This document shows positions 6,340 through 48,364 of a stretch of 57,459 nt of DNA, piece after piece; the stretch's first letter is position 1; each line of letters starts with the position of its first letter. The translations under genes were made by a program, and so were the position numbers. The stretch is from a virus. Taxonomy: Duplodnaviria; Caudoviricetes. The notes under the pieces are model-generated. The model worked only from the letters and a program-made list of their open reading frames with translations, was not told the DNA's origin and did no database searches. The DNA lies in the IMG/VR virus record IMGVR_UViG_3300020508_000007, positions 1-57,459 of that record. One strand, 5' to 3'.

Positions 6340-6627
6340 ATGTTGAGCTTCAAAAAATGGATACAATCAGAGAATCTTGCTGGTCCGGGTGGAGGCCCAG
6401 AATTTAACCCAGACAGTCAAGAATTACTGGCTAAAAACCAGCATGCACACGGTGTTGGTGCATTTCCTAGTTATGGCAATAGCCCTATAAACAAAAATAG
6501 GACTGCCACCTCAGATTATTTAGATCCTAGGTTCAAAAGAAAATATATGGCAAAACAAAATATAGTCTCTGCTTCTGTCGATAAGCAAGTAAAAAAATCG
6601 CTATCGCAGAAGCCATCTCATGATTAA
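6340..6627 (+). CDS. Small protein with capsid-targeting-like N-terminus
   Basis: Begins MLSFKKWIQSE. Confidence 0.65.
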   Translation: MLSFKKWIQSENLAGPGGGPEFNPDSQELLAKNQHAHGVGAFPSYGNSPINKNRTATSDYLDPRFKRKYMAKQNIVSASVDKQVKKSLSQKPSHD

Positions 6628-6667
6628 TGACATTTTTACTTTAAATATTTCATTAATGTAATTTTTA

Positions 6668-6711
6668 ATAAAGAACGGGACAATTACAAGGCTAATTGTC
6701 CCGTTCTTTAT
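6668..6711. terminator. Hairpin between convergent genes, likely bidirectional terminator
   Basis: 19-bp perfect inverted repeat ATAAAGAACGGGACAATTA / TAATTGTCCCGTTCTTTAT. Confidence 0.75.
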
Positions 6712-6734
6712 CGAATATTTAGTACAAGATTTAT

Positions 6735-7097
6735 TTAAAAATCTTCGTCATCATTGTCATAGTCGTCATCTTCTTCGTCGTCATCGTCGTCGTCATCTTC
6801 CCAATCATCGTCGTCATCGACATGTTGCCAGCCATTCCAATCATCATCTTCATCATCGTCTTCGTCATCATCATCATCGTCGTCATCGTCGTCATCAAAA
6901 TCTTCGTCGTCGTCGAAGTAGTCATCATCGTCGTCATCTTCATAGTCATCATCAAAATCATCTTCATCATCATCTTCATCTTCGTCAGCAAATGTTGTGG
7001 TTGCGACAGATCTAGTTGATTTCATAAACGCATTTGATTCTAGCATCCAGTCCATTACATTTGGATCTGTTTCTGATTGAGAAAAATTCTTAGTCAT
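6735..7097 (-). CDS. Extremely acidic (poly-Asp/Glu) protein
   Basis: About 80 C-terminal residues are almost all D/E punctuated by F/Y/W; GGAG site before ATG 7097. Confidence 0.75.
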   Translation of the reverse strand: MTKNFSQSETDPNVMDWMLESNAFMKSTRSVATTTFADEDEDDDEDDFDDDYEDDDDDDYFDDDEDFDDDDDDDDDDDEDDDEDDDWNGWQHVDDDDDWEDDDDDDDEEDDDYDNDDEDF

Positions 7098-7186
7098 CGT
7101 TCGCTCCTCCAAGGAAAAAGACTTACGGGTATATTAGGAAACAATTGCAGAATTTGCAAATTATTTCTGAACATTCAGGCAAAATT

Positions 7187-7399
7187 ATGAAAGATAAGAT
7201 CAAAAATGAACAAGTTAAACATCAGGTTCGGGGTCAGGTTGTGGATCAGGTTTATGATCAGGTTCTTAATCAGGTTAGATATCAGCTTTGGTGGAAGGTT
7301 AATGATCAGGTTAGGTTAAAGGTTAGTGATCAGGTTTATTGGCAGGTTAGGAATCAAGTTTTGAGACAGGTTGACAATCAAGTTTGTTTTCAATTATAA
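7187..7399 (+). CDS. QVxx-repeat microprotein, unit 1
   Basis: MKDKI start, 12-nt CAGGTTnnnnnn period; TAA replaces the GAA of the shared LEREI tail. Confidence 0.6.
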   Translation: MKDKIKNEQVKHQVRGQVVDQVYDQVLNQVRYQLWWKVNDQVRLKVSDQVYWQVRNQVLRQVDNQVCFQL

Positions 7400-7409
7400 A
7401 GAGAGATTA

Positions 7410-7622
7410 ATGATGAGAGATAAAATTATTCAAAATTTGACAGAGATAAAAAAACAGGTTTGGGATAAGGTTTGGGATAAGGTTGGCGAGCAGGTTGATG
7501 TTCGGGTTTTTAATCAAGTTGATGTTCAGGTTTTGGATCAGATTTATTGGAGGGTTAGGCGTCAGGTTAGGAATAATCGGGTTGATAATCAATTAGAAAG
7601 AGAAATTAATGATGAAAGATAA
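7410..7622 (+). CDS. QVxx-repeat microprotein, unit 2
   Basis: MMRDKI...QVWDKVWDKV...QLEREINDER*; stop overlaps the next unit's start. Confidence 0.6.
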   Translation: MMRDKIIQNLTEIKKQVWDKVWDKVGEQVDVRVFNQVDVQVLDQIYWRVRRQVRNNRVDNQLEREINDER

Positions 7623-7809
7623 GATTAATAAAGTTAGAAAAGAAGCTTTGTATCAAGTTGAAAATCAGGTTGGGTTTTAGGTTCGGGATCAGGTTAGGTG
7701 GCAAGTTTACAATCAGGTTAGGTGGCAGTTTAATGATCAAGTTTGGCAGGTTAATGTAAATGTTAGGGATCAGGTGGCATTTCAAATTTTTTGTGGTTGT
7801 AAATCCTAA
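7612..7809 (+). pseudogene. QVxx-repeat unit 3 with in-frame TAG
   Basis: TAG at 7678-7680 in GTT GGG TTT TAG GTT; unit 5 has GTT GGG TTT CAG GTT. Repeats continue in frame after the stop. Confidence 0.6.
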
Positions 7810-8193
7810 CTAGCTGCTAACTATTTTCCTATAAATCTCTTCTATATTTAGAAGGGTTTGAGGTATTTTATCAGGAATATGCTTTTGGTATAATGGAAGT
7901 AAATATTTTATTGTATTATATGCTAATTCTAGAATTTGTTGAGCATTTCTTGATAATTGTTCTGGGTCATTAACATTTAAACCTTCCATTGTCTTTGCAT
8001 TTTCCAAAGCCCACTTTACACTGACTAGAATAGCTTGCCTTCCTTGATCTGTGGTGGCTAATTTTTCTCTATGAATTTGATTAGGACCTAAGAGATATTG
8101 AAGGTTTTTAAAAAGGTTTTTCAATAGTTGAAAAGGCACTTCGGTTGTTTCTAGGTATTTTCTTTGGGTGATATATTGATTAAAAGTTTTCAT
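7810..8193 (-). CDS. Hypothetical protein with capsid-targeting-like N-terminus, inside the QV array
   Basis: Begins MKTFNQYITQRKYLE. Confidence 0.7.
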   Translation of the reverse strand: MKTFNQYITQRKYLETTEVPFQLLKNLFKNLQYLLGPNQIHREKLATTDQGRQAILVSVKWALENAKTMEGLNVNDPEQLSRNAQQILELAYNTIKYLLPLYQKHIPDKIPQTLLNIEEIYRKIVSS

Positions 8194-8304
8194 TGATTAG
8201 TTCCTTTTTGAGACAGATAATTAAACAAATTACGCAAATATGTATTGTGAATTGGTTCAAAAATTGTGGTAAGATAGCTAGGCGATTAGAAAGAGAAATT
8301 AATT

Positions 8305-8475
8305 ATGAAAGATAAGATTCAGAAAGTAATGGATCAGGTTTTTGATCATGTTTGGGATCATATTAGTAATCAGGTTTGGGTTCAGGTTTATAATCAATTT
8401 GATGGTCAGATTTATTGGAGGGTTAGGCGTCAGGTTTGTTTCCGATTAAGTCGGGAGATTAACAATGAAAGATAA
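8305..8475 (+). CDS. QVxx-repeat microprotein, unit 4 (56 aa, not in ORF track)
   Basis: MKDKIQKVMDQVFDHVWDH...QIYWRVRRQVCFRLSREINNER*. Confidence 0.6.
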   Translation: MKDKIQKVMDQVFDHVWDHISNQVWVQVYNQFDGQIYWRVRRQVCFRLSREINNER

Positions 8476-8809
8476 GGTTGTGTGTCAGGTTAAGTGGCAA
8501 GTTAGGGATCAGATTTGGAATCAGACTGTGGATCAGGTTAGGCGTCAAGTTGGGTTTCAGGTTAGCAATAATCTGGTTTTGTGGAAGGTTAGGAATCAAT
8601 TAGAAAGAGAGATTGATAGTCAACTAAAGAAATTTGTCCATATCTTATCGATTAATTCTGTAAGTTATCGATGTGCAACCATAAGTGTGCGGCTTGCTTT
8701 TTGGAGGACATGGCTTTTTTTCTACGACTTGCACCATTTTTCCTTCAGGGTTTCTTTCCATTTTTACAGTCGTTACCAATTTACCATAGATTTGCTCCCA
8801 TTCATATAA
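8465..8809 (+). CDS. QVxx-repeat unit 5; family similarity ends near 8620, rest is run-on
   Basis: MKDKVVCQVKWQVRDQIWNQ...QLEREID; tail overlaps an antisense ORF. Confidence 0.5.
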   Translation: MKDKVVCQVKWQVRDQIWNQTVDQVRRQVGFQVSNNLVLWKVRNQLEREIDSQLKKFVHILSINSVSYRCATISVRLAFWRTWLFFYDLHHFSFRVSFHFYSRYQFTIDLLPFI

Positions 8810-12874: not shown

Positions 12875-13312
12875 TTATTTAAGATAGAGTTTCATTTCCA
12901 TGGCAGTTTCCATCGAATCTTTAAGCTGATCTTCATAAAAAACTTTCAAATACGCATAAAGAGTATGCAATGTAGGGTCGATTGCATTCTCTATCGCAGC
13001 AATCCTGTGACTGTAATTTGAAGCAACTTCTTCCTCCATTTTGATAGCATAAGCAACCAAAGCCCAAGGATCTGTTTCATCCATAATGTATGGATTGATG
13101 TTTTGCGAAGGCACGCCCCCAAGTTGGACAATCAATTTTGAAAACTCGGTTACGTGTTTGTGCTCGTCTTGAGACTCTTCTAAAAATAGCTCACTGTATT
13201 CCTGCCTATGCAAGCCTTTGACCATAGCACCCGCTTGCAAATAAAACATCATGTGTTTTCGTTCGTTTGCTAAATCTTCTTGCAAATTAGCAATAATTTT
13301 ATCGATATTCAT
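12875..13312 (-). CDS. Ferritin/bacterioferritin-like protein
   Basis: LANE...Y...EESQDEHKH...QLGGVP...MEEEV four-helix di-iron pattern. Confidence 0.8.
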   Translation of the reverse strand: MNIDKIIANLQEDLANERKHMMFYLQAGAMVKGLHRQEYSELFLEESQDEHKHVTEFSKLIVQLGGVPSQNINPYIMDETDPWALVAYAIKMEEEVASNYSHRIAAIENAIDPTLHTLYAYLKVFYEDQLKDSMETAMEMKLYLK

Positions 13313-22261: not shown

Positions 22262-23011
22262 CTACAAAAATAAATTAAAGTTATTTGAAGAATTTGCCCA
22301 AAGATGAATTAAATCTGGGTTTTTTATTAATTTGGCTTTGCCATGCTTGGCACAATAATACCAAGCTCTCACCCCAGTGTCAAAATACTTTTTGGTAAAA
22401 TCTACAACATTTTGCATATGAAAATTTATCTCAGTCTTGTAAATTTTTGTAAATTCTGGATCTTGTTTAAAGCCTTCATTTGAACAAACTTCAAAGTCTA
22501 AAAAATTGGTTTCTCCAATTTTCCAAACCGATGGGGTGAGATGTATGTGTCCTGTAAAATAAATACATGAACCTGCCATCCAAAAATCTTGTTGCATGGA
22601 ATCCATCAAATTCAAATACCATCGAGATCCTTTTATTACACAATCTGGCTCAACATGAACTAAATATTTGTACTTATTTGAATTTGCAAAATGCATAGCA
22701 AGATTTAAACATTTTCCATGCGACATTTTATGTGGAGTCTGTATTATATGTAAATTTTCAAATCTTTTTAAATGCCGTCTTTCAATTTCGCATTGCGTAA
22801 TTCCATTTTTTACAGGCTGTCCTAATGAATTGCTACATGACGAAAAACTCTTGGTTCGTTGCTCTGAATCGCTTATTGATGGATTGTTATCCATAACAAG
22901 AATATCTGCATCTTGAGTATATTTCAATAAAGATCTAATACAGCTTTGTGTCCAGCCATTTGAAAAGTAAGAGACTAAAACTAATAAAGTTTCTGAACGG
23001 AACTTAAACAT
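22262..23011 (-). CDS. Glycosyltransferase, GT2-like (GT-A fold)
   Basis: CIRSLLKY, ILVMDNN, SHGKCLN and VEPDC motifs. Confidence 0.7.
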   Translation of the reverse strand: MFKFRSETLLVLVSYFSNGWTQSCIRSLLKYTQDADILVMDNNPSISDSEQRTKSFSSCSNSLGQPVKNGITQCEIERRHLKRFENLHIIQTPHKMSHGKCLNLAMHFANSNKYKYLVHVEPDCVIKGSRWYLNLMDSMQQDFWMAGSCIYFTGHIHLTPSVWKIGETNFLDFEVCSNEGFKQDPEFTKIYKTEINFHMQNVVDFTKKYFDTGVRAWYYCAKHGKAKLIKNPDLIHLWANSSNNFNLFL

Positions 23012-23370
23012 TACTCTTGTTCGCCCATATTGTTATATCCACTATCAGCAGATGATGGCACAATTTCGTCGAAGTTTGGTGAATGCTTAGGCTTTAGAGA
23101 CAATTTAGGAACGCTATTTCGATCTAATTTTTTGATTAAATTAGATATCTCTGCATCACCTCGACGAGACATAGTTTGAAAAAAATCCATAGTTTCTTCT
23201 GGATATTTTCTCATAATTATTTTGAATAACTCTACTTCTGTCCTGTCCTGATCTTCTGCAAAATCACTGTCATTATCCTTGTTAAAATTGTATTTTTCTA
23301 CAGGATTGTCATTGTCAGCCAACCCCTCTTTGTAGTGTTTCTTCTTGAGCCAATCTTTAAACATCGACAT
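23011..23370 (-). CDS. Small protein with capsid-targeting-like N-terminus
   Basis: Begins MSMFKDWLKKKHYKE. Confidence 0.65.
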   Translation of the reverse strand: MSMFKDWLKKKHYKEGLADNDNPVEKYNFNKDNDSDFAEDQDRTEVELFKIIMRKYPEETMDFFQTMSRRGDAEISNLIKKLDRNSVPKLSLKPKHSPNFDEIVPSSADSGYNNMGEQE

Positions 23371-25431: not shown

Positions 25432-26139
25432 ATGGATCAGATGTTACTCATCGACTGCTGTGGTGGCTCCGGTTTCGAACTACAACTTAGTGAGTCAAAT
25501 GTCTCATCAAGAGGCGGACTCACTAAGTTTCGTGGTAAATTCCAAGAAGCCGAAGCAATAAACAAAAACAAGCGAATGTATCCGTATGATGTCCTTAACG
25601 AAAATATCGGTCGTCTTCAGGAAGCGATCAGTGATCGCAGACTGGTTGGCGAATTGGACCACCCATCGGATTCAATTATCCACTTCGCTAATACCTCTCA
25701 CGTAGTTACTAAATTATGGTGGGATGGTAATGTCCTCATGGGCGAGGGCGAAATCCTAAATACACCATCTGGAATGATTCTTAAGAGTCTTATAGATGGT
25801 GGTGTGAAAGTTGGAATTAGTTCAAGAGGAGTAGGAAACGGAAAGGTGAACGAAGATGGCATCCTTGTCATTGGTGAAAGCTATAAGCTCATTACCTTCG
25901 ACGCTGTTGCCGATCCTAGCACTTTTGCTGCGTTCCAAGAAAAAGTCGTCTCTAAAGATGAAAGCTTCAATGTTCAAGCGACTAAACAATATGTTCATAA
26001 TAAACAACAGAATTCTAATAAATCTGCTGCTAAAAATGAAAGCGTTGGCATAGATAACGTGAACAAAGAATTATTGATCGCTTTTCTAGGCGGCTTTGTG
26101 AAATCTCAAACAGAGAAATTTAAGTCGAGGTTAGGCTAA
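25432..26139 (+). CDS. Prohead protease (T4 gp21-like)
   Basis: NKNKRMY, GELDHP, GISSRGVG and DAVADPS motifs. Confidence 0.93.
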   Translation: MDQMLLIDCCGGSGFELQLSESNVSSRGGLTKFRGKFQEAEAINKNKRMYPYDVLNENIGRLQEAISDRRLVGELDHPSDSIIHFANTSHVVTKLWWDGNVLMGEGEILNTPSGMILKSLIDGGVKVGISSRGVGNGKVNEDGILVIGESYKLITFDAVADPSTFAAFQEKVVSKDESFNVQATKQYVHNKQQNSNKSAAKNESVGIDNVNKELLIAFLGGFVKSQTEKFKSRLG

Positions 26140-27079: not shown

Positions 27080-28525
27080 ATGAACGCACGTTTCCTCAAC
27101 GAAGCTCGTGAGATCGAGACCAGATGGTCTAAGCCACTTCGTAACGGCAAGTCAATGCTTGATGGCATTACTGATCGCTACGAAAGAGCAACTGCCGCTG
27201 TTCTCCTCGAAAATCAACGTCTCTTGAATGAGACCATGACCGATACTGGCGATATTTCTCAATTCAAGAGAATCGCTATTCCATTGGTCCGTCGTATTTA
27301 CCCACAATTGATCGCTAACAAGATCGTATCTGTTCAGCCTTTGTTGGGTCCAACCGGTTTGGTTTACTACCTCCGCTTCCGCTACTCTTCAAACAAGGGT
27401 GCTATGCGTGGTGCAGACCTAAACAGCGGATTCCCAAGTGATGACCGTACATCGCTCCAACAATTGGCAAGCGGTGATGGTAACTTGGACATCTATTACA
27501 CACACCAATTCGTTCAAAACGAGACCAGCAGCACCGACGCAGGTGGAGACACCACTTCGGTTTTTGCTCCTCTTGAGCACACCCCAGTTTTGGCTGGCAC
27601 TATGACCGGTACTGTCTATGACGGTGCTGTCGCTGTCCAAACCTTCGTTGTTGCTGAAAACGGCACTTTCACCTTCACCGATATCGGAACCCCAACCAAT
27701 AAGGCTACTGGCGGTACCCTCGATCTCGTAACAGGCGAAATGACCCTCACTTGGAATAACGATCCGGGTGCTAACAATGTTGTTTGCTCATATGAGTACA
27801 ACATGGAATGCAACCAAGATTTGCCAGAAGTAAATCTCGTTATCGAATCAGAAGAAATCGCAGCTAAGACTCGTAAGCTCAAAGCAGCTTGGTCATATGA
27901 AGCTCAACAAGATCTTCGTAGCCAGCACAGCCTCGATGCTGAAGCTGAACTTACCGCAGTTCTTGCACAAGAAATCAACTTGGAAATCGACCGTGAAGTT
28001 CTCAGTGACTTGAGAAACAACGCAGGTACCGTTGCTGTGTGGGATTTCAACACCGCTCTGGGCGATACCATCAAGGAAAAATATGAAAGCCTTTATGTTA
28101 AGGTTGTCGAAGTTTCCAACGTTGTTCACCGTAAGACCCTCCGTGGTGGTTGCAACTGGCTTGTTACCTCTCCTGAAGTTGCCTCCGTGTTCGAAACAGC
28201 GACCGCTGGTTTCGCTCCCGCTCCTTCCGAAGGTTTCACCGCTAGCCTCGGCATCCAGTACGTCGGAACCATCAACAACAGATGGAGATTGTACAAAGAT
28301 CCATTGTTCCCACAAGGTCAAATCCTCATGGGTTACAAGGGCGATTCCTACATGGATAGCGGCTATTTCTACATGCCTTATGTTCCACTTACTCAAACTC
28401 CAGTTGTTCTCGATCCAGAGAGCTTCTGTCCACGTAAGGGTATTTTGACCCGATACGGCAAGAAATTGCTCCGTGAAGGTGCTAAGTTCTACGCAAGAAT
28501 GTCGATTGCTAATTTCATCGTGTAA
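27080..28525 (+). CDS. Major capsid protein (T4 gp23-like)
   Basis: LLENQ, IPLVRR, VQPLLGPTGLVYYLR, KTRKLKAAWSYEAQQDL, EIDRE, YMPYVPL and TRYG motifs. Confidence 0.96.
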   Translation: MNARFLNEAREIETRWSKPLRNGKSMLDGITDRYERATAAVLLENQRLLNETMTDTGDISQFKRIAIPLVRRIYPQLIANKIVSVQPLLGPTGLVYYLRFRYSSNKGAMRGADLNSGFPSDDRTSLQQLASGDGNLDIYYTHQFVQNETSSTDAGGDTTSVFAPLEHTPVLAGTMTGTVYDGAVAVQTFVVAENGTFTFTDIGTPTNKATGGTLDLVTGEMTLTWNNDPGANNVVCSYEYNMECNQDLPEVNLVIESEEIAAKTRKLKAAWSYEAQQDLRSQHSLDAEAELTAVLAQEINLEIDREVLSDLRNNAGTVAVWDFNTALGDTIKEKYESLYVKVVEVSNVVHRKTLRGGCNWLVTSPEVASVFETATAGFAPAPSEGFTASLGIQYVGTINNRWRLYKDPLFPQGQILMGYKGDSYMDSGYFYMPYVPLTQTPVVLDPESFCPRKGILTRYGKKLLREGAKFYARMSIANFIV

Positions 28526-31765: not shown

Positions 31766-32617
31766 ATGCTTAGATTTTCTGATTTTATTCGTTTATCATT
31801 TAATGAAATAGTTGAGCCGATCAAAACAACGGCCAAGAGACGCAACATCATAAAAAATGCTGGCACTATGCGTGCTACGCCTGTTATTGAGTATCAATTT
31901 CGTACATCTCTTGGCAACTTAGTGAAGCTTCATTTTAGGCTAAAAGATGAAAGTCCTCTGACTTATGATGTGTCATTTTATGTTAATGACACACAATACG
32001 ATGATGCCAGCAGAACTGATGGCAATAATCGTGATCCTGAGATCTTAGGTAAAGTTTTGTACTTAATCAGAAGTAAAGCGGATTTGCTAAAGGCTGAAGA
32101 GATACATTTCCTTGCTCAGAAAGGCGAAGGAGATGTTAAAGTAGTAAGGAATTTAAACATTGAAGAATATAAGCCGAATGCTTTACAACAACTTAATTTA
32201 TTGAAACAATGGCTTCAAAGATATGAAGTCAAAATGATAGAGCCAAATAAAGAAGTATATTTGAAGCTTAGAAGGCCCATACCGCCAGCCAGACCGGATA
32301 TAGATGTAGAAAGATGGGTTCGAGTTATTGATGAGTGCATGGCACTTGTAATAAAGGGACAGACTTTAGATATGAACAATCTAGAGGGTTCCATGTACAC
32401 ACAAAGTATTGCAACCAATTATCCGCAATACAAAGCTCTGATTGATGCGTTACGTAATTACACAAACGCAATCTTATCGAATACAGATTCTGGTTTTCAT
32501 AAACGCAAGAACCGAAGGGCGTCTTTATATTCAAAACTGTTGAATAGATATTTCTCTGATTGGGATATTGAACAGAGCAAAGATTCTTTTGTTATGAAAA
32601 GACAACAATCTAATTAA
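31766..32617 (+). CDS. Hypothetical protein with capsid-targeting-like N-terminus
   Basis: MLRFSDFIRLSFNE; TAAATA 4 nt upstream. Confidence 0.7.
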   Translation: MLRFSDFIRLSFNEIVEPIKTTAKRRNIIKNAGTMRATPVIEYQFRTSLGNLVKLHFRLKDESPLTYDVSFYVNDTQYDDASRTDGNNRDPEILGKVLYLIRSKADLLKAEEIHFLAQKGEGDVKVVRNLNIEEYKPNALQQLNLLKQWLQRYEVKMIEPNKEVYLKLRRPIPPARPDIDVERWVRVIDECMALVIKGQTLDMNNLEGSMYTQSIATNYPQYKALIDALRNYTNAILSNTDSGFHKRKNRRASLYSKLLNRYFSDWDIEQSKDSFVMKRQQSN

Positions 32618-39521: not shown

Positions 39522-39533
39522 AGGCAATTCGAG

Positions 39534-40100: not shown

Positions 40101-40118
40101 GCATTGAAAGGTCGTATA

Positions 40119-40961: not shown

Positions 40962-40971
40962 GGACAAAAGC

Positions 40972-42705: not shown

Positions 42706-42744
42706 ATGCAATTTTAAGCCTTCATACAATCCTATATAAGGCAT

Positions 42745-43179
42745 ATGCTACCATCAGAGGAGATGAATATGGCTAATGATAGAAATCCCATGAACCTTGA
42801 AGATTTGCCCGGCTATTTGAAGTCTCAAAGGGAATCTGAAGAGTCAGGTAATTCACCTATAATTCAAACTGGACAGATTATTGCCGAGCCTGAAGTCACT
42901 TACAAATGGCGTAATCTTCTTGGATTTGCTGCCTTATTGCTTGGCTTGACCATGGTGTGGGGGGTAATGCAATATAACAAGGACACAGAAAATATCACTT
43001 TCATGGTTGAAAATCAAAGCCCTGAAACAATAACAAAAATTTTATCAGAAACAAATTCAAAACTGATTTCCATGGAGCAAAAATCAGACAAGGTTTATGA
43101 AGTCAAGTTAACGGCTCCAAAAAGTAAGAGACCTTTGCTAGACATCTTACTAAACAATAAAAAGCCTGAATCTAAGTGA
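42745..43179 (+). CDS. Single-pass membrane protein
   Basis: LLGFAALLLGLTMVWGVM segment. Confidence 0.65.
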   Translation: MLPSEEMNMANDRNPMNLEDLPGYLKSQRESEESGNSPIIQTGQIIAEPEVTYKWRNLLGFAALLLGLTMVWGVMQYNKDTENITFMVENQSPETITKILSETNSKLISMEQKSDKVYEVKLTAPKSKRPLLDILLNNKKPESK

Positions 43180-43181
43180 TA

Positions 43182-43457
43182 TTAGACCTTCGCAATATCT
43201 GGCTGAGATAATTTGAAGCCGCTTATTTCTTCAAATTTGGCTTCGTTGCCAATTGGTAAAGAAATTCTAAAACATACTGCACAAGACTTTGTAGGATATG
43301 TCCATGCAAAGTCTTTAACCTCAAGTGAGTGTGAGGCATGTAATTTGCCTTTGCAAAGGATCAAGGCGTTCATTATTTTGTAAAGAGAATTTTGAGAAGG
43401 AGTAACAATATTTTCTTCTCCTATGTCCCAAAATCTGCTTAATTCTATTTTACTCAA
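43182..43457 (-). CDS. Hypothetical protein
   Basis: 91-aa ORF with TTG start. Confidence 0.5.
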   Translation of the reverse strand: MSKIELSRFWDIGEENIVTPSQNSLYKIMNALILCKGKLHASHSLEVKDFAWTYPTKSCAVCFRISLPIGNEAKFEEISGFKLSQPDIAKV

Positions 43458-43621
43458 AATATTAATCTTACTGTGGGGTTATGAATTTGAAATCAAATTA
43501 GATCGACTTTCATTACAAAACTGTTTGTAAATCTGGCTTCCAATCTAATTGTAAATGATATGAAATGGTTGAAACTTAACATTTGTTTTGCATACATAAA
43601 TTGTGTTTTTGGAGTGAAAAA

Positions 43622-44188
43622 ATGAATTTTAAAAATTGGCTAGAAACGAGTAACAATTTAGTAGGGCCTTCAGGCTCTGTTGTTACACATTTTTTTAAAA
43701 CTGCACAAGGCTCAAAATATATTTTGACAAATAAAAATGAGTCAAGAAGAGTTAAATCATTTCATGCCAATACAGGTGGAGAAGATCAAGGACTACATGA
43801 ATGGTTTCAACAGTGTGTTTTTGTGCCACCTACCCATGAAATTCAAGCCAGTTCTTACCAAAATTTGAGAAATCATTATTCTGGACCAGTATTGTTAGGT
43901 GCTTCAAGTGGGACTCTTTCATTTTTTATTGTAAAAAACAATAAATGGGAAGTCGTTTTATTTAAAGACGCATTTCAAAAGGCAATAAGAAGTCCTATAC
44001 ACGCTAAAAGATCAGAAGAGCCAATGCAATTCCCATATACTAAAATACCAACAATAGGATATTCTGTAGCAGAGTGGAGCAATAAACCCGATAACACATT
44101 AAAAAGCTATCATTTTGGATCTCCAGTCTCTGAAGTAAAGCCCATACAACAAGCAAGTGCATCAGATTTACAAGATTTTTTTAGTTAA
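43622..44188 (+). CDS. Hypothetical protein with capsid-targeting-like N-terminus
   Basis: GGAG site then MNFKNWLETS at 43622. Confidence 0.7.
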   Translation: MNFKNWLETSNNLVGPSGSVVTHFFKTAQGSKYILTNKNESRRVKSFHANTGGEDQGLHEWFQQCVFVPPTHEIQASSYQNLRNHYSGPVLLGASSGTLSFFIVKNNKWEVVLFKDAFQKAIRSPIHAKRSEEPMQFPYTKIPTIGYSVAEWSNKPDNTLKSYHFGSPVSEVKPIQQASASDLQDFFS

Positions 44189-44285
44189 ATTAATCTCAAC
44201 AGAGCTTCTGGCTTTCTGATTTACTTGATTATCAACATAAAACTTTTCGGAAGCCCTTCTTATACATTGATTCCAAAAATAAAAT

Positions 44286-44519
44286 CTAATCTGATTCCAG
44301 ATCTGGCGTATAATCTGTTTTCCATTTTGGGTTTTTGCAGCCAGAACCAACAAATCCTTCTCTAACCAAATGTTTGGTTTTTTGACAGCGTTGACACTTT
44401 TTTGTGCCACGTTGAATGCCCCAAGTAAAAAACAGAATATGCAATCCTGTGAATTGCACAGGCTTTGCTTCTATTTCTGCCCAATCATGAATGCCTAAAA
44501 AACAAAGGATTGATTTCAT
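44286..44519 (-). CDS. Small protein, CxxGxHxW...CxRC type
   Basis: LCFLGIHDW...CQRC. Confidence 0.6.
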   Translation of the reverse strand: MKSILCFLGIHDWAEIEAKPVQFTGLHILFFTWGIQRGTKKCQRCQKTKHLVREGFVGSGCKNPKWKTDYTPDLESD

Positions 44520-44533
44520 TATATTTTAACGCC

Positions 44534-44827
44534 TTATTGTTGAGCTACTGGGGTGTCTTTGGAAATCTTTTTGATGCTCAGAATGCAATAATCCCTGTTT
44601 AAAACGGCTGATGAAAAAGCACAAGGTGTAGCTGAAGATGTGATGTAAGTAACGGTTACATCCTGCTCTTCGCCGGTATAAACACCTGCAACTTGATCGT
44701 ATCGTTGGAGTGTGATCACGTCTCCAACTTCAAAGTTACGATCATTATTTCTCAGATCGTGTGTCTTAGTGCCAAGTGCAATTGCGTCATAGAAATACGT
44801 CCAACTTTTGCATTTGTGTTTTTTCAT
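44534..44827 (-). CDS. DUF3850/ASCH-like (PUA fold) protein
   Basis: HKCKSW...G.KTHDLRNNDRNFEVGD. Confidence 0.75.
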   Translation of the reverse strand: MKKHKCKSWTYFYDAIALGTKTHDLRNNDRNFEVGDVITLQRYDQVAGVYTGEEQDVTVTYITSSATPCAFSSAVLNRDYCILSIKKISKDTPVAQQ

Positions 44828-44841
44828 TTTATCTTTCGATT

Positions 44842-45225
44842 CTAACGAGAAGACCATCCATCAACATCATCGTCAAGATCTGGAATGTGTCCACCTATGC
44901 TTCGAGCAAATTTATCTCCAAGCAAAGTTCTACGGGAAGAGTGCGTCGGTTCTTGATAGCCGTTTTGTTGTGCAAATTCCGTAGCTTCATCCCAAATATA
45001 TTTTCCAAGTCCTTGTTGACGATACTTTGGAGCAACAAAAATCTCTTTAGTTTCACCAGTATCATCATCCCAAACAATATAGCCTACAGGCCCTCGTTTG
45101 TCAAAGAAATTCAAATTATGAGTGTAAAAATTCTCATCATGGGAATACTTGAAATTCAATGTTTCCCAATCTGGGTCATTTATGTTAGGCAGGTTATTTT
45201 CTTGTAGCCATCTTGCAAAATTCAT
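44842..45225 (-). CDS. GNAT acetyltransferase with capsid-targeting-like N-terminus
   Basis: IFVAPKYRQQGLG acetyl-CoA motif; starts MNFARWLQE at 45225. Confidence 0.8.
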   Translation of the reverse strand: MNFARWLQENNLPNINDPDWETLNFKYSHDENFYTHNLNFFDKRGPVGYIVWDDDTGETKEIFVAPKYRQQGLGKYIWDEATEFAQQNGYQEPTHSSRRTLLGDKFARSIGGHIPDLDDDVDGWSSR

Positions 45226-45309
45226 AAAATTATTTAGGGTCAAAAATTAAAAAAAGATCAAGTTTTGTGACCAATCGGTCGATGATAAATTAACAAAGGA
45301 ATTACTAAA

Positions 45310-45774
45310 ATGAACGAACGAAATACACACAAAATTGCATCTTCAAAAGTCAAAGTTGGAGATTTGATGGCATTGGTTTATTATGTTAAAGTTAAGGGAA
45401 TCGTTGGGGGTGGCCAAGAGTTGCTTGTGAACGATGTTGACAATGTTGGGCCAGACATATTAGTGCGTGGCAAAGAGTTGATTGAGCAAGCACTATCGAG
45501 CGATCAATTTGCTGAAACCGTGAAAATTAGCAAGACTCAAGCAGCAGAAATTTTGGTTCACTCAAATAATCGTCCAATTACAGTTAATTTTATCAAAGCA
45601 GACGGAAGTGATCGAATTCTAAGAGGAAGACTTATTAAGCCAGAGCCTTTACTGGGAAGAAGTATGATGGAAGACTTGGATTTGCCAAGTGTTGAAAAGA
45701 ATCGAACAAGATTAGTTGATCACAGAACAATCAAAGAATTGATTGTGGATGGTGTGAAATACACTGTTAACTAA
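45310..45774 (+). CDS. Hypothetical protein
   Basis: AAGGA site; 154 aa. Confidence 0.7.
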   Translation: MNERNTHKIASSKVKVGDLMALVYYVKVKGIVGGGQELLVNDVDNVGPDILVRGKELIEQALSSDQFAETVKISKTQAAEILVHSNNRPITVNFIKADGSDRILRGRLIKPEPLLGRSMMEDLDLPSVEKNRTRLVDHRTIKELIVDGVKYTVN

Positions 45775-45784
45775 AAGTAAGTAG

Positions 45785-45837
45785 AAAACAAGAGAATCAT
45801 GTCAATTGAATACAAATTGACATGATTCTCTTGTTTT
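45785..45837. terminator. Long hairpin between convergent genes, bidirectional terminator
   Basis: 23-bp perfect inverted repeat AAAACAAGAGAATCATGTCAATT / AATTGACATGATTCTCTTGTTTT. Confidence 0.8.
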
Positions 45838-46078
45838 AGATATTCTTGTAATCGAAATTGGCATTTTTAGGCAAGGGACTAATCAATGTTCCATGTTTAG
45901 TTGCATAATTATAAAGCCTCTCAGGCGTTGATGCAGACATTTTATTTGGGAGTAAGTGTATTGCATCGATGTTGTATGTTACTCTCTTGCCGTCAACAGC
46001 AAATGTTATATCACCAGCTTTATTTTTTGCTACAATTACTACATTTGCATTTTCTAACCATGTTTTAAATCTTGTCAT
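45836..46078 (-). CDS. Small protein with capsid-targeting-like N-terminus
   Basis: Begins MTRFKTWLENA. Confidence 0.65.
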   Translation of the reverse strand: MTRFKTWLENANVVIVAKNKAGDITFAVDGKRVTYNIDAIHLLPNKMSASTPERLYNYATKHGTLISPLPKNANFDYKNI

Positions 46079-46205
46079 AGAATATTTCTAGTGTTTTGAA
46101 TTTGTGGAATTGTTGAGATTATATATTCCCATATTTGAAAGATTGATGTTGCCAGCTATTAAGTCTATCTATATTGCTGTGCTTCTCGATTCAAGAGGAA
46201 TATAA

Positions 46206-46676
46206 ATGACAGAAAATAGAGATCTCCTTCAATACCAAGAAGGATCGCCTTGGTTTTGGAAAATATTTGGCGGAGCAATCATGGGAATAATCAGCATCTT
46301 GCTATTAACTCATATAACTAATATTAACAGCAATATTGATCGCACATTTCTTTCGTTACGAGGCGAAAACAAAGATTTATATGTTATGATTGACTCACAA
46401 AAAGAGCGTCTTGTGGGTCTAGAACAAAATCGTGAACAGTATAAAGAAAAGATATCAAGCTTAGAAAAAAGCTTACTTCAGTCGCAATTGTCAATTGATG
46501 AGTTTAAACAAAAAGTTGTAGCTACTGAAACTCAACTTAATTCTTTAAAAGAAGAAATTAAAGCTCTAAAGGATTTGAACAAAGACACCATACAACAATT
46601 ACAAGAAGTCAGAGAAAAACTAGTAGCAGCAGATGCAGCTAAGAAGGCAACTATTGAAAGCACAAACAAAAAATAA
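46206..46676 (+). CDS. Membrane-anchored coiled-coil protein
   Basis: N-terminal transmembrane helix and heptad-rich tail. Confidence 0.7.
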   Translation: MTENRDLLQYQEGSPWFWKIFGGAIMGIISILLLTHITNINSNIDRTFLSLRGENKDLYVMIDSQKERLVGLEQNREQYKEKISSLEKSLLQSQLSIDEFKQKVVATETQLNSLKEEIKALKDLNKDTIQQLQEVREKLVAADAAKKATIESTNKK

Positions 46677-46943
46677 TTAGAGACCAAGTTTTTTAAGTTT
46701 GTCTTCTCCATCATTTTTATGTTTGTTTTTCTTGTAATTTTTAGCTGCCTTTCTAATTTCCTTGCTTAAAAGCTCAGGATGTTCGTCGCCATGGATTGTT
46801 GCAAACGCATTAAGGTGTCCAGCACTAGTGGGTGCGTGTGCAAGAGGAGGCAATTGCCCCGATCCATATAGTGGTGGGTAAATGCCAAGAGAGGTTCTTT
46901 TGCCTCGCTCCATTAGCCATTGTTGAAAAGTTGGAAGTGCCAT
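46677..46943 (-). CDS. Small protein with capsid-targeting-like N-terminus
   Basis: MALPTFQQWLME at 46943; this start removes the overlap with the upstream gene. Confidence 0.65.
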   Translation of the reverse strand: MALPTFQQWLMERGKRTSLGIYPPLYGSGQLPPLAHAPTSAGHLNAFATIHGDEHPELLSKEIRKAAKNYKKNKHKNDGEDKLKKLGL

Positions 46944-46956
46944 ACAAGTATGTATG

Positions 46957-47700
46957 TTATTCCTTTGAAATATCATAAAAATGTTTGCTGTAAGCCCTTC
47001 TAGCGTCAGCCCATTCTGAAGGAATTTGTTTGTTGGGATCTTCAATAGGGTAACTGCCACGCCCTAAATGATGTGCTATTGGTAATTTATTGTAAGTAAA
47101 AGTGTTGCCATAAAATTCATAGGAATGCAAGCCAAAGAATGCTCCTTGGTAATCTTTAATTGGAAATGACATGTATGGTTTGTTTTTCAAACGAAGCCGC
47201 AACTGCCAACCAGTATCCATATCAGGGTCAACTAAAAAACCATGCTTACAAGCGGGGCAAGTTTTCCAAATAGCGTCTAGATTTAGATCTTGGATTTCAT
47301 CAAGTACATAAGCAGCACCATATGCAGATGGAAAGTCGTTTCTTACGAATGCCGCACCAACAGCAAGAAAGCCTTGTATAAGAAATTGTTCCAAAAAAGC
47401 TAGATGACTCCTTTTTTCCCAAAAGAAATCAGGATCTTGAAACAAAATGTACTTTGAAGATGCAGCTTGCAGTATTTTTGTTAGGCCCAATCCATGTGTT
47501 TGATATTCAATCCCATCATGAGATATGAGTTTAAATTCAAACTCTTTCTGTATATCTTCTAATGCTTTTGTTTGGTTGGGAAATGTGTTATCTACAACAA
47601 TCAATTCAAAGTCATTATTGAAATCATATAGCATCTTAAATTGGTAATATAAATAATCTACAGATTTCCAATTTACGAATCCAACTGTCCATTTAGCCAT
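46957..47700 (-). CDS. Glycosyltransferase, GT2-like
   Basis: LIVVDNT, HGLGL, FQDPDFF (DxD) and DTG motifs. Confidence 0.75.
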   Translation of the reverse strand: MAKWTVGFVNWKSVDYLYYQFKMLYDFNNDFELIVVDNTFPNQTKALEDIQKEFEFKLISHDGIEYQTHGLGLTKILQAASSKYILFQDPDFFWEKRSHLAFLEQFLIQGFLAVGAAFVRNDFPSAYGAAYVLDEIQDLNLDAIWKTCPACKHGFLVDPDMDTGWQLRLRLKNKPYMSFPIKDYQGAFFGLHSYEFYGNTFTYNKLPIAHHLGRGSYPIEDPNKQIPSEWADARRAYSKHFYDISKE

Positions 47701-47737
47701 ATTTCATATCATTTACAAATAAACTATTTACTATGAA

Positions 47738-48364
47738 TTAAATAGTAAATTTTTCTTCAACTACTTTTTCAACAGGTATGAATGCCATCACTTTGTTTGG
47801 AGTAAAACTCTTTGGGTCCGGGTCTTTTGTGGGACGTAAGTCAATCCCATTAAAGGACTTAAATGGCTTGTAAAGTTTGCCTTGGAAACTTGATGAATCT
47901 AATTCAGTGATGCAATCCAAAACTGACTGTTTGAGTTTGGATGCGGGAACATAGTAAATTTCAGTTTCTGATTGATTTAGTACAAAATAGTGTTCGACTA
48001 AAGTTCCTCGATAGTCTCTTCCTTGTTGATGAAAGTTTTGCAGTTGTTCTGACAATTTTTTATTGTTGTCATGATTTCTTAAAACTTCGTATGCGATATC
48101 GTTTCTTCCGGGCTTAAATGTTCTACGCAGTTTGATTTGTACTGGTTCTTGAGGAGATCCACCAAGATAACCATCAATTTTAAGACGTGCATCAGCATGG
48201 TAGCCTTCGGCAGGAAGAATTTCTACGCCATGTTCCATTAGTTTTTCAATGATGAATTTTTCGCCGATGACACGGCCTTGAGCCATTCTTTCATTGATGG
48301 GAAAGCGACTAAAATCTTGGTTGCTCATCCCAGATGTTTCAAAATGTTTTTTGAATCTATCCAT
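47738..48364 (-). CDS. Putative PD-(D/E)xK nuclease
   Basis: GE...D...KIDGY...VQIK pattern; begins MDRFKKHFE. Confidence 0.5.
   Translation of the reverse strand: MDRFKKHFETSGMSNQDFSRFPINERMAQGRVIGEKFIIEKLMEHGVEILPAEGYHADARLKIDGYLGGSPQEPVQIKLRRTFKPGRNDIAYEVLRNHDNNKKLSEQLQNFHQQGRDYRGTLVEHYFVLNQSETEIYYVPASKLKQSVLDCITELDSSSFQGKLYKPFKSFNGIDLRPTKDPDPKSFTPNKVMAFIPVEKVVEEKFTI

Follow-up and report, generated by a model that had tools for sequence, protein, structure and literature searches.

The window, the whole 57,459-nt stretch of viral DNA that was analysed, is part of a huge phage with T4-type head genes (portal, S77 protease, scaffold and gp23-type capsid protein), and across it a short peptide tag recurs on proteins of very different kinds (Table 1). 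The fragment comes from a very large uncultured lake phage; the capsid protein of its nearest cultured phage is only 33% identical to that of the window, and the relatives that we compared were G001 (459-kb genome; capsid protein 96% identical) and LR756511 (capsid protein 77% identical). All eleven N-terminal tags listed in the initial annotation translate exactly as given there, and the internal copies that it placed in the HD-CCA fusion (one) and in ORF 1713 (two) are present.

Table 1. Tagged genes and head-module genes of the window. Tagged genes are named in the text by the first nucleotide of their start codon; SD, Shine-Dalgarno site.
Product	Coordinates	Strand	Tag or N-terminus (nt)	Upstream of start	Further evidence
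Composite protein, 201 aa	1713..2318	+	Internal: LKFKKWMNCQIDE (residues 66-78, nt 1908-1946); SFSNWLSKKGLNE (residues 149-161, nt 2157-2195)		Pfam DUF3008 head; Cys-rich tail
Tagged small basic protein, 95 aa, pI 9.7	6340..6627	+	MLSFKKWIQSE (6340-6372)	TATATA box 6330-6335, 4 nt before ATG; no SD	G001 orthologue 59% identical, tag kept
Tagged protein, 127 aa, pI 9.3	7810..8193	-	MKTFNQYITQRKYLE (8149-8193)	SD-like AAGGA; no box	No family in Pfam or PHROG; no orthologue in G001
Tagged Gln-rich repeat protein, 435 aa	16843..18150	+	MTYTKFGTFLEE (16843-16878)	GAGG SD; TATATA box 16812-16817, 25 nt upstream	Between large terminase and portal; repeats weakly match Pfam EAD9/DUF6381; tagged orthologue in L022
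Tagged acidic protein, 119 aa, pI 5.1	23011..23370	-	MSMFKDWLKKKHYKE (23326-23370)	AGAGG SD	Divergent from head operon; N-terminus MYNFTDWLNNKRLKE in G001 orthologue (46% identity), MKRFLDYYRFRE in positional counterpart in LR756511
Head-module protein, about 620 aa	23539..25407	+	AFDRIISE, tag-like	TAAATA box 23474-23479	Upstream of protease, in T4 gp67/68 place; no family in Pfam search
gp21-type prohead protease (S77)	25432..26139	+			Pfam Peptidase_S77, E = 2.5e-25; T4 gp21 chain 5jbl_A, E = 1.4e-14
gp22-like scaffold, 299 aa	26139..27038	+			23 [LIVM]-x-E sites
gp23-type major capsid protein	27080..28525	+	MNARFLNE, tag-like		Pfam Gp23, E = 6.2e-85
Tagged protein, 283 aa, pI 9.4	31766..32617	+	MLRFSDFIRLSFNE (31766-31807)	TAAATA box 31756-31761, 4 nt before ATG	
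Tagged HD phosphohydrolase + CCA-adding enzyme fusion, 727 aa	35490..37673	-	MKTFQRWIIE (37644-37673); internal MNFRQFME (residue 286, nt 36795-36818) at HD/CCA joint	TAAATA box 37684-37689, 10 nt upstream	Pfam HD, PolyA_pol, PolyA_pol_RNAbd
Tagged protein, 188 aa, pI 9.1	43622..44188	+	MNFKNWLE (43622-43645)	GGAG SD; TACATA box 43593-43598, 23 nt upstream	No family match
Tagged GNAT acetyltransferase, 127 aa, pI 4.7	44842..45225	-	MNFARWLQE (45199-45225)	TAAATA box 45231-45236, 5 nt before ATG	Pfam Acetyltransf_1, E = 2.5e-8, from residue 18
Tagged small basic protein, 80 aa, pI 9.7	45836..46078	-	MTRFKTWLE (46052-46078)	Near-box TAGAAATA, 4 nt before ATG	
Tagged small basic protein, 88 aa, pI 9.7	46677..46943	-	MALPTFQQWLME (46908-46943)	TACATA box 46949-46954, 5 nt before ATG	G001 orthologue 78% identical, N-terminus MALQSFTQWLNE; YPPLY..GQLPPL module, also in L016 of LR756511
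Tagged protein, 208 aa, weak PD-(D/E)XK nuclease-like fold	47738..48364	-	MDRFKKHFE (48338-48364)	Near-box AGAATA, 4 nt before ATG	

The head module contains the gp21 homologue that had been reported for this DNA, which we presume to be the enzyme that removes the tag, and a scaffold that would presumably form the core receiving it. In the window capsid protein, whose candidate propeptide cuts are LLE-44 and LNE-51, residue 56 pairs in the alignment with residue 20 of mature T4 gp23*, and the tag-like N-termini of the capsid protein and of the 620-aa protein are both kept in LR756511.

The tag motif, M-x(1-4)-F-x-x-[W/F/Y/H]-[L/I/M/F]-x(0-6)-E, stands at the start of 8-10 of 75 window ORFs, against 0.2-0.5 in shuffled controls, and the expected N-terminal enrichment was thus borne out. 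Specifically, a loose regex (M.{1,4}F..[WFYH][LIFM]) matched the first 16 residues of 10 ORFs in a greedy 75-ORF set that excludes 45225 and 46943 (2000 shuffles: mean 0.50, maximum 4; internal Met positions: 2/350), and a stricter regex requiring Glu within 4 further residues matched the first 20 residues of 8/75 (2000 shuffles: mean 0.19, maximum 3; internal Met positions: 1/306). Both regexes were composed after the tags had been seen; as a check independent of them, a weight matrix trained only on 16 tags of LR756511 placed five of the claimed starts within the top 7 of 1453 window ATGs. A census of G001 found 26 tagged genes among 661 crude genes (shuffle mean 2.0, maximum 6). In 8193, 23370 and 31766 the Glu lies further out, beyond the stricter regex; we retained the latter two because their orthologues keep the motif, and 8193 on the loose regex alone because no orthologue was found. 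The starts 16843 and 43622 lie within longer ORFs yet have GAGG or GGAG 6-8 nt upstream, and a TA(N)ATA box precedes 45225 and 46943 by 5 nt. A doubtful regex match in the primase (2320-3384; MAVDFDLFMDWAKE) was left uncounted.

The tagged proteins had been called unrelated, and at the BLASTP level this holds: with the first 15 residues stripped, the best pair among the 12 tagged modules, searched as a 12-sequence database, reached E = 0.003 over 44 residues. The tag occurs in 42 BLASTP families in loci around 80 related capsid genes, and among relatives of the HD-CCA fusion or of its CCA part it is present in 49 of 70 phage-type proteins but in none of 50 cellular CCA enzymes, with stand-alone phage CCA enzymes carrying it at their N-terminus. 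That the motif is a product of chance, or the sole surviving similarity of one paralogous family, is scarcely credible. Some kinship does exist, as 6340 and 43622 have NL(A/V)GP(G/S)G in common and a YP..Y..GQ.PP module is common to 46943, the insert of ORF 1713 and L016 of LR756511; both forms of the idea are nevertheless contradicted by an enrichment put at no less than 20-fold, by folds as diverse as GNAT, HD, CCA enzyme and the nuclease-like protein, by the number of families and by the untagged cellular homologues.

Within families the tag behaves as an add-on peptide. Of 67 homologues of the 208-aa protein, among which D64, Q76 and K78 do not vary, 41 carry it by regex. In the 283-aa family, where E14, E17 and P18 are invariant, an alignment of the window protein with 8 homologues shows it in 8 of the 9 sequences. 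In both families it evolves faster than the body. AF2 models of both proteins (pLDDT 84.6 and 83.8, respectively) show it as a detached low-confidence helix (residues 2-10 and 4-12) followed by a loose linker; a fold search with the 283-aa model gave no confident match, and the Foldseek matches of the 208-aa model, most of them to restriction-type nucleases, were without exception weak (best E = 0.0097). Synonymous codons in the tag track genome usage (F is TTT in 18/28 tags vs 72% genome-wide) and at least 10 codons are used at position 8; selection thus acts on the tag peptide and not on the RNA. A DNA pattern for Trp-type tags gave 16 matches in LR756511 and 17 in G001, each against 2 in the reversed control, but no excess in the distant huge phage LR756508 (6 vs 2) or in T4 (4 vs 4); all 16 matches in LR756511 open ORFs of at least 54 aa, and 15 of them have Glu at positions 9-12, which the pattern did not specify.

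The internal copies mark fusion joints of once-separate tagged genes, both in the HD-CCA protein and in ORF 1713. The two copies in ORF 1713 flank an inserted tag-plus-YP module of 80 aa, whereas the G001 orthologue has a single internal tag and no insert, and the insert exists in G001 as a separate tagged 75-aa gene. The HD/CCA joint in G001 reads IRFKTFIEATE, without Met. One could suppose from this insert, from the fusion of two tagged genes in HD-CCA and from tagged sets that differ between phages with 96% identical capsid proteins that the shared sequence is mainly a recombination joint, a short conserved module of DNA and peptide that travels with its promoter box in swaps, insertions and fusions while the peptide itself does little. 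We consider this improbable: conservation is specific to amino acids (F, W/F/Y, L/I, E) across families down to 39% identity, and synonymous sites are as free as genome usage permits and so leave little DNA identity for recombination. Such a role would, moreover, be compatible with our preferred reading of the peptide rather than a true alternative to it.

In about half of the tagged genes the ATG is preceded at 4-5 nt by a T4-late-like TA(N)ATA box, and a Shine-Dalgarno site is missing. Across the 80 capsid-gene loci (966 kb), the box lies 3-7 nt before the ATG in 35 of 58 tagged ORFs of at least 100 aa, 26 of them at 4 nt; this spacing is seen in 39 of the 1172 untagged ORFs and at 0.62% of ATGs overall. 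By family the counts are 25/42 tagged and 22/385 untagged, and in the window a box within 70 nt precedes 9/11 tagged but 16/64 untagged genes. T4 ipII and ipIII differ from this half in having a Shine-Dalgarno site and no adjacent box. From a box next to the ATG without a Shine-Dalgarno site, it follows that this half of the tagged genes is probably expressed late, on messages with little or no leader. PMC1524935 gives TATAAATA, spanning -13 to -6, as the late promoter sequence of T4 and CTAAATA as the one used by Aeh1. At 4 nt, the spacer seen here is 1 nt shorter than in T4, where the last A is at -6, so that under a strict T4 rule the RNA would start at the T of the ATG. Genes for gp55-like late sigma factors are found in LR756511 (phrog_234, E = 7.4e-8) and G001. 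The adjoining box and the fusion origin of the internal tags are new for this window.

If messages start at the AUG, the codons after it might be conserved for initiation and carry no protein signal, in line with the 35 box-adjoined starts without a Shine-Dalgarno site and the frequent Lys (AAA/AAG) at codon 2. This is very unlikely, however, as the tag is kept despite normal Shine-Dalgarno sites in 18/58 tagged ORFs of the loci and 4/11 in the window, the box also precedes untagged genes (42745 and 49534 in the window, 39 ORFs in relatives), codon choice in the tag is free and internal copies are conserved. We know of no initiation role for a fixed spacing of Trp, Phe and Glu.

T4 ipII and ipIII begin with MKTYQEFIAE in the T4 record, as stated in the initial annotation, and the consensus of the tags in this clade is M-K-T-F-K-E-W-L-E. 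In the T4 tag, targeting needs residues 4 and 7 and processing needs residues 8 and 10 (PMC9026906 section 2.6), and the positions mapped there are those conserved in the window tag. At positions left free by the regex, the commonest residues among 90 non-redundant clade tags are K2 (32%), T3 (27%), K5 (32%) and E6 (38%); three are the T4 residues, while K5 differs from the T4 Q. T4 gp21 cleaves at L/I-x-E. At P3 of the first Glu, L/I occurs in only 5/12 window tags and 35/90 clade tags, and W, F or Y occupies this position in 41/90 of the latter, so the strict rule as written does not describe them. The idea of a portable head-loading address is partly supported: the add-on behaviour, the selected peptide, the matched T4 positions and the S77 protease fit it, strict cleavage sites and a purely N-terminal position less well. 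To our knowledge, experiments on the T4 tag concern N-terminal tags only, from which the internal copies here differ. T4 gp61.1 (54 aa, annotated hypothetical, beside the primase gene) begins with MKTFKEFIKE, and the first 22 residues of the 6340 protein resemble it. We do not know gp61.1 as a head protein, and because it carries the same motif, the motif alone is no proof of head loading.

The tag itself is real and its destination is probable: on comparison with T4, we favour with moderate confidence the reading that the peptide is the form that the T4 capsid targeting sequence takes in this lineage, loading cargo into the head. The tag would form a short N-terminal amphipathic helix whose aromatics at 4 and 7 and aliphatic at 8 make one hydrophobic face, by which a newly made protein may dock on the scaffold core as the prohead assembles. 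The S77 protease would then cleave after the Glu closing the tag, and the freed, mostly basic proteins could remain with the DNA in the head and enter the next host alongside it. Late expression would supply the cargo when heads are built, and we speculate that tags at the fusion joints of HD-CCA and ORF 1713 may give cargo separable by the protease.

The same helix could instead dock, N-terminally and internally alike, on some other shared partner such as a chaperone, clamp, RNA polymerase, membrane site or degradation adaptor of phage or host. Internal peptides kept even without Met (IRFKTFIEATE, and FKNWLESQ in the G001 DUF3008 orthologue), the motif on gp61.1, the many tags outside L/I-x-E and the cytoplasmic workplace of enzymes such as the CCA enzyme would all fit this alternative. 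We hold it to be possible but rather unlikely, given the T4 match at four functionally mapped positions plus K2, T3 and E6, the full T4-type head module, the link between the motif and a late-type box and the related N-termini on two head proteins; no other partner was indicated in our analysis.

With head loading as the preferred reading, the tag would make the probable packaged cargo of a huge phage readable from sequence. As had been proposed for enzyme cargo, the tag is attached to the GNAT acetyltransferase, the HD-CCA enzyme and the nuclease-like protein. A CCA enzyme would be useful in the infected cell even unpackaged, a point against head loading. The tagged set is both basic, with pI of 9 or more in 8/12 modules vs 14/66 other ORFs, and variable between close relatives, G001 having orthologues of only 6 of the 12; in both respects it can be likened to the T4 internal proteins, although 12 tagged modules in about 75 window ORFs is far above the handful of tagged proteins in T4.

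The initial annotation had proposed that a short N-terminal peptide shared by a series of window proteins is an address that loads enzymes and small proteins into the head for delivery at infection. Every N-terminus it listed translates as written, giving 11 N-terminal tags of the form M-x(1-4)-F-x-x-[W/F/Y/H]-[L/I/M/F]-x(0-6)-E, and the internal copies it described are also present, one at 36818 and two in ORF 1713. Phe at position 4 and Trp, Phe, Tyr or His at position 7 occur in all 11, with a Met-Phe gap of 1–4 residues, and the proteins that carry them do appear unrelated, as a BLASTP comparison of the twelve tagged modules past residue 15 gave nothing better than E = 0.003. The motif is enriched at N-termini over shuffled controls: a loose regex matched the first 16 residues of 10 of 75 greedy ORFs (shuffle mean 0.50, maximum 4 in 2000) and 2 of 350 internal Met positions, and a stricter regex demanding the Glu matched 8 of 75 ORFs (shuffle mean 0.19, maximum 3) and 1 of 306 internal positions. 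Both regexes were composed after the tags had been seen, so we trained a weight matrix solely on tags of LR756511, a huge-phage relative; five of its top seven hits among the 1453 ATGs of the window were claimed starts. Two other N-termini were left uncounted, namely that of the primase (2320-3384), a doubtful regex match that is probably due to chance, and MNFFGFEKV at 10399, which is internal to an ORF that has a strong Shine-Dalgarno (SD) sequence at an ATG further upstream. The tag is almost certainly a real, functional and portable peptide.

The 57,459 bases of the window (GC about 33–44%) are the entire record for its genome. At the DNA level, 50,697 phage records include a single relative, the uncultured phage LR756511 (595 kb). 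The capsid protein of LR756511 is 77% identical to that of the window and that of the best cultured phage 33%; the capsid gene has 337 relatives in IMG/VR, and one IMG/VR genome, G001 (458,813 bases, rated 91% complete), has a capsid protein 96% identical. All 12 sequencing runs listed for a query with window positions 41000-49000 were DNA runs from freshwater or lake metagenomes, with no RNA run among them. The gp21 homologue that had been claimed was recovered as the S77 protease of a set of T4-type prohead genes, and these genes, together with the relatives and the freshwater or lake source, indicate that the window is part of the genome of a huge freshwater phage whose head is of the T4 type.

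Head genes and tagged proteins of the window, with their database matches
Feature	Coordinates	Strand	Match or remark
Composite tagged ORF	1713-2318		
Large terminase	14605-16440	+	
Gln-rich repeat protein, 435 aa, tagged	start 16843, between terminase and portal		Weak EAD9/DUF6381 Pfam matches
Portal, intein-bearing	19457-22018	+	Pfam Portal_T4
Acidic 119-aa protein, tagged	start 23370, beside head operon		
Protein of about 620 aa	23539-25407	+	No family
S77 prohead protease	25432-26139	+	Pfam Peptidase_S77; alignment to T4 gp21, E = 1.4e-14
gp22-like scaffold	26139-27038	+	142 relatives
gp23-type major capsid protein	27080-28525	+	Pfam Gp23
HD-CCA protein, 727 aa, tagged	start 37673		Pfam HD phosphohydrolase and CCA-adding enzyme
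GNAT acetyltransferase, tagged	44842-45225		Pfam match
208-aa protein, tagged	47738-48364		Weak Foldseek matches
Five tagged proteins, 80-283 aa			No family

To follow the tag beyond the window, a Trp-type DNA pattern was run at three-residue and two-residue spacing, with the same pattern reversed as the control. At three-residue spacing it gave 16 matches vs 2 in the control for LR756511, 17 vs 2 for G001, 6 vs 2 for LR756508 (capsid 34% identical) and 4 vs 4 for T4, and at two-residue spacing 10 vs 1, 6 vs 6, 4 vs 1 and 0 vs 0 in the same order. The matches in LR756508 are not tag-like in appearance, and G001 shows no excess at two-residue spacing, yet five of its six matches resemble real tags. 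All 16 three-residue matches in LR756511 start ORFs of at least 54 aa, and Glu at positions 9–12 (15 of 16) and an MKT start (9 of 16) recur among them, neither of which was required by the pattern. A looser DNA pattern, ATG-N6-TWY-N6-TDB-HTN, proved too noisy (96 vs 57 in the control for LR756511, 45 vs 26 for T4) and was kept solely as a positive control, which recovers T4 ipII and ipIII. A crude gene census of G001 counted 26 tagged genes among 661 (shuffle mean 2.0, maximum 6 in 300), with 27 of 886 N-terminal Met positions matching vs 7 of 2141 internal ones (p = 1.7e-9), several of the latter looking like mis-called starts. Across 80 related capsid-gene loci (966 kb) we counted 58 tagged ORFs of at least 100 aa, which fall into 42 BLASTP families, and because only 6 of the 12 window modules have an orthologue in G001, the putative cargo set turns over quickly. 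Just 3′ of the capsid gene of LR756511 (locus L001) lie a 165-aa protein (21808-22305) starting MLTWTEFLE, with Trp at 4 and Phe at 7, and a 1076-aa protein (24134-27364) starting MEFREWFRSAE; very large proteins can therefore bear the tag.

Codons within the tag track genome usage, with position 8 encoding Leu, Ile, Met or Phe through at least 10 codons, so selection acts on the peptide. Among the best 120 of 4360 relatives of the 727-aa HD-plus-CCA protein, the motif lies in the first 30 residues of 49 of the 70 closest, which are phage-type, and in the first 25 residues of none of the following 50, which are cellular-type CCA enzymes. Regex matches were found in 41 of 67 homologues of the 208-aa protein, most of the others being variants or start calls downstream, and the 283-aa protein (8 usable homologues) keeps the motif in 8 of 9 aligned sequences, with E14, E17 and P18 invariant. 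AlphaFold2 models of the 208-aa and 283-aa proteins depict the tag as a short helix of low confidence, joined by a loose linker to a body that is predicted well.

The internal copies can be traced to gene fusion. Stand-alone phage CCA enzymes (400–470 aa) start with M.FK.WL..EE, and the fusion proteins retain the motif at the HD/CCA joint, so the internal copy in the HD-CCA protein is the old N-terminus of a fused gene; at this joint G001 reads IRFKTFIEATE, without the Met, and the copy is still conserved as a peptide. In the G001 orthologue of ORF 1713, a DUF3008 domain is followed by a single internal FKNWLESQ and then by a Cys-rich tail, whereas the window ORF has an extra 80 residues between two tag copies; this insert has its homologue in G001 as a gene of its own, 75 aa long, with the start MLDFVNWC. 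Both cases show tagged genes fused head to tail, with their tags retained at the joints.

The peptide that the initial annotation took as its model is indeed present in the T4 record, where ipII and ipIII start MKTYQEFIAE. In the excerpted text of PMC9026906, the first ten residues of T4 IPIII are enough for head incorporation, residues 4 and 7 are the main basis of targeting, residues 8 and 10 are the basis of processing, and gp21 cleaves after L/I-x-E. The conserved positions of the tag are F4, W/F/Y7, L/I/M8 and a closing Glu, so that both systems place an N-terminal peptide of about ten residues, aromatic at positions 4 and 7, aliphatic at position 8 and closed by Glu, on unrelated, mostly basic, fast-changing proteins, and both phages have the gp20/gp21/gp22/gp23 head module. 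The likeness extends to K2, T3 and E6: at the positions left free by the regex, 90 non-redundant clade tags most commonly have K2, T3, K5 and E6, where T4 has K, T, Q and E. The tag is presumed to work as the T4 capsid targeting sequence (CTS) does, and is very probably derived from it. It differs in that position 7 is Trp in 62% of tags, whereas it is Phe in T4, and in that the Met-to-Phe spacing varies from 1 to 4 residues and the Glu may stand anywhere from position 8 to 15. The number of tagged genes also differs, at least 26 per genome vs a handful in T4, the presumed cargo includes enzymes (HD-CCA, GNAT and a nuclease-like protein), and there are internal copies.

Fit to the T4 cut rule appears weaker than fit to the targeting residues. 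A closing Glu is found in 12 of 12 window tags, at positions 8–15; strict Leu or Ile at P3 occurs in 5 of these 12 and in 35 of the 90 clade tags, and aromatic residues often take their place at P3 of the first Glu (Trp, Phe or Tyr in 41 of the 90). Elsewhere in the head module, the capsid protein has LLE-44 and LNE-51 near the point aligned with the mature T4 N-terminus, and 23 [LIVM]-x-E sites are present in the 299-residue scaffold. Tag-like motifs, F-x-x-I-x-x-E and F-L-x-E, close the N-termini of the core-region protein of 620 aa (23539-23590, MRRKLIKQDAFDRIISE) and of the capsid protein (27080-27103, MNARFLNE), and these endings are kept in LR756511 (L001 positions 15780 and 19288; MKRKLINYDVFQKISE and MSANAKFLNE). 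Complex prediction with the scaffold alignment and residues 1-45 of the tagged 208-aa family scored 0.00 in two control-free runs, which weighs neither way.

A T4 protein bears directly on how far the motif can be trusted as a mark of head residence. T4 gp61.1 (NC_000866, 18966-19130; 367-531 of our T4 locus, − strand), a 54-aa hypothetical protein encoded beside the primase gene, starts MKTFKEFIKE, and its N-terminus MKTFKEFIKEDMVAGDSGGNPE combines the tag with a Gly-rich stretch as in MLSFKKWIQSENLAGPGGGPE of the window (compared with 6340-6627 and 43622-44188); over 22 residues it is similar to the 95-aa protein of the window (E = 5e-4 in a single comparison). We found nothing relevant on gp61.1 in the open-access literature, including in combination with capsid targeting. 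Since a protein annotated only as hypothetical bears the motif, the motif is no proof of head residence, and the departures from T4, namely the internal copies, the aromatic P3 and the sheer number of tagged genes, count against head loading. On balance we lean towards the prediction that the tag loads its proteins into the head, with real room for doubt.

CTS-like sequences on variable proteins of T4 relatives have been published, as the excerpted texts of PMC9026906 and PMC3012670 describe; our search of the open-access literature found no paper tying huge phages to capsid targeting. In the giant phages phiKZ, 201phi2-1 and SPN3US, ejection or inner-body proteins have long N-terminal propeptides that are cut by gp21-like proteases, and in the excerpted account these are mostly 79 to >160 residues long, with the cut motif A/S/G-x-E and no short common decapeptide (PMC5694885). 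The proposed likeness is that many proteins, enzymes among them, enter the head of a giant phage and that their N-terminal regions are removed after Glu by a gp21-type protease; for the tag, both loading and removal are predictions. These phages are not close relatives, the capsid and scaffold here being of T4 type. Encapsulin cargo-loading peptides offer a further parallel to the proposed role of the tag, as there too a short terminal peptide directs diverse enzymes inside an HK97-fold shell; they are usually C-terminal, are not cleaved and attach to the shell protein itself, and no delivery of cargo to another cell is involved.

Two of the three enzymes that had been named as tagged cargo, the HD-CCA protein and the GNAT acetyltransferase, have Pfam assignments, and the HD and CCA parts plausibly form, in our reading, a pair for tRNA 3′-end repair. 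The third, a putative nuclease, is best regarded as a lead: matches to the 208-aa model are mostly to restriction-type PD-(D/E)XK nucleases (DpnI, PvuII, a SPARDA nuclease and Hjc) and D64, Q76 and K78 are invariant in 34 sequences of the family, but all the matches are weak (best Foldseek E = 0.0097, TM 0.28–0.40) and there is none in Pfam. Searches of Pfam and PHROGs with ten tagged proteins returned nothing beyond GNAT and the weak matches of the 435-aa protein, and the 188-aa protein had no match above chance level in the ESM Atlas. For the 283-aa model Foldseek gave no match with E < 0.003 (TM about 0.2), and its acetyltransferase-like matches are at noise level, so no fold name was assigned. 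Like the DNA-associated internal proteins of T4, the tagged modules are mostly basic, with a pI of at least 9 in 8 of 12, compared with 14 among the 66 other ORFs. The sequence GGTTCGAGTCCTGCCCGGCCTA (about 34846-34910, − strand), which lies just upstream of the HD gene (34291-34845), resembles a tRNA T-arm and 3′ acceptor end; neither ARAGORN nor Rfam called a tRNA gene in the window.

Many tagged genes lack an SD sequence and have instead, ending 4–5 nt before the ATG, a TA(N)ATA box that is often preceded by C (CTAAATA, CTATATA, CTAGATA), a feature absent from the initial annotation. Over the whole window, TA(N)ATA-N4-5-ATG shows no excess (8 occurrences vs a shuffle mean of 12.3); the unusual part is its placement, as 7 of the 8 are at ORF starts, four of them tagged (6340, 31766, 45225 and 46943). 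A box lies at most 70 nt upstream of 9 of 11 tagged vs 16 of 64 untagged window genes (p = 5e-4), and in the head operon a TAAATA lies 59 nt ahead of the ATG at 23539. Of the 58 tagged ORFs in the 80 related loci, 35 have a box 3–7 nt upstream, at 4 nt in 26 cases, and none of the 35 has an SD; among untagged ORFs the count is 39 of 1172, and among all ATGs the share is 0.62%. Counted by family, the figures are 25 of 42 tagged vs 22 of 385 untagged. Two untagged genes, 42745 (+ strand; TATATA, 6-nt spacer) and 49534 (− strand; TACATA, 5-nt spacer), also have a box adjoining the ATG and no SD, so this leaderless-type arrangement is not exclusive to tagged genes.

Late promoters of the T4 type are read by gp55, and genes resembling gp55 are found in two relatives. 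With a PHROG profile (Pfam has no gp55 family), a gp55-type late sigma was detected in LR756511 (phrog_234, E = 7.4e-8 and 1.8e-5; T4 positive control 2.5e-70), and G001 has an orthologue that shares 53% identity with the one in LR756511; a search of both genomes with the T4 gp55 protein as sole query gave no match, and the 57-kb window has no gp55-type gene. The T4 late promoter is TATAAATA at −13 to −6, and the form in Aeromonas phage Aeh1 is CTAAATA from −12, as given in the excerpted text of PMC1524935. A TA(A/T)ATA core, here often C-preceded, is common to both, but the box here is a 6-mer where that of T4 is an 8-mer, and its commonest spacer (4 nt) is 1 nt under the T4 geometry. The tagged genes that stand directly behind a late-type box without an SD also differ from T4 ipII and ipIII, which have one, and a box usually 4–5 nt before the ATG would imply leaderless messages. 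We infer that the box is a late promoter giving leaderless or nearly leaderless messages. If so, it would define a leaderless late message class, none of which we found described for T4-type phages in open-access text; nor did we find there a phage paper linking leaderless messages with TATAAATA.

Box, start codon and tag might together form a portable cassette for late expression and head shipping of acquired genes, with the internal tags as protease-cut joints of cargo polyproteins, a proposal that we put forward tentatively and consider rather less probable than head loading itself. With such a cassette a huge phage could make almost any acquired gene a capsid-delivered effector. Proteins carried in phage heads take effect in the first seconds of an infection, when no phage gene has yet been read, and those of T4 include inhibitors of host restriction systems. 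To our knowledge, purification of particles of uncultured huge phages has so far been beyond anyone, so a sequence rule for head cargo would provide a first list of their immediate-early weapons, and would also reveal how quickly the list turns over between close relatives. The injected arsenal could then be listed from sequence alone, at 25–40 proteins per genome; it would differ between near-identical phages and would include a tRNA 3′-end repair kit (HD and CCA), a nuclease-like protein and an acetyltransferase. As the tag is short and modular, it could also serve to load chosen proteins into such capsids. All of these implications hang on head loading, which we judge somewhat the likelier outcome.

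Several other loci in the window are of interest in their own right. Small adjoining ORFs at 7145-8809 have a common repetitive (V/W)-D-Q-V / Q-V-x-x-Q-V pattern (e.g. MKDKIQKVMDQVFDHVWDHISNQVWVQVYNQ) and look like a paralogous family or repeat region. A ferritin-like protein (12875-13312, E = 1.8e-13) adjoins an M28 peptidase with a hydrophobic N-terminus (13330-14475), both untagged and both unusual as phage genes. Signalling-type genes form a run at 38732-42705 and encode a protein with a VWA domain, a PP2C phosphatase (E = 1.4e-14) and a 577-aa protein whose protein kinase match is weak and falls under the Pfam cut-off. Directly 3′ of the capsid gene, the long ORF at 28677-30236 carries a Mom-family/GNAT domain (Pfam Mom, E = 2.8e-11) together with a C-terminal part rich in Cys, and probably starts at a Met pair near 28677 rather than at a GTG at 28473. 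The portal gene is interrupted: an SD and ATG GCA TGG TGG (MAWW) at 19186 are followed by a group I intron (19191-19409; Rfam RF00028, 84.5 bits), and the ORF, whose residues 110-327 match Pfam Intein_splicing, resumes near 19457; the LR756511 portal reads MAWYDLFKIF... without interruption. Between terminase and portal, a 2H phosphoesterase (18206-18724; Pfam 2_5_RNA_ligase2, E = 1.6e-8; Acb1 anti-CBASS family, 1.9e-7) is kept at the equivalent place in LR756511 with 46% identity.
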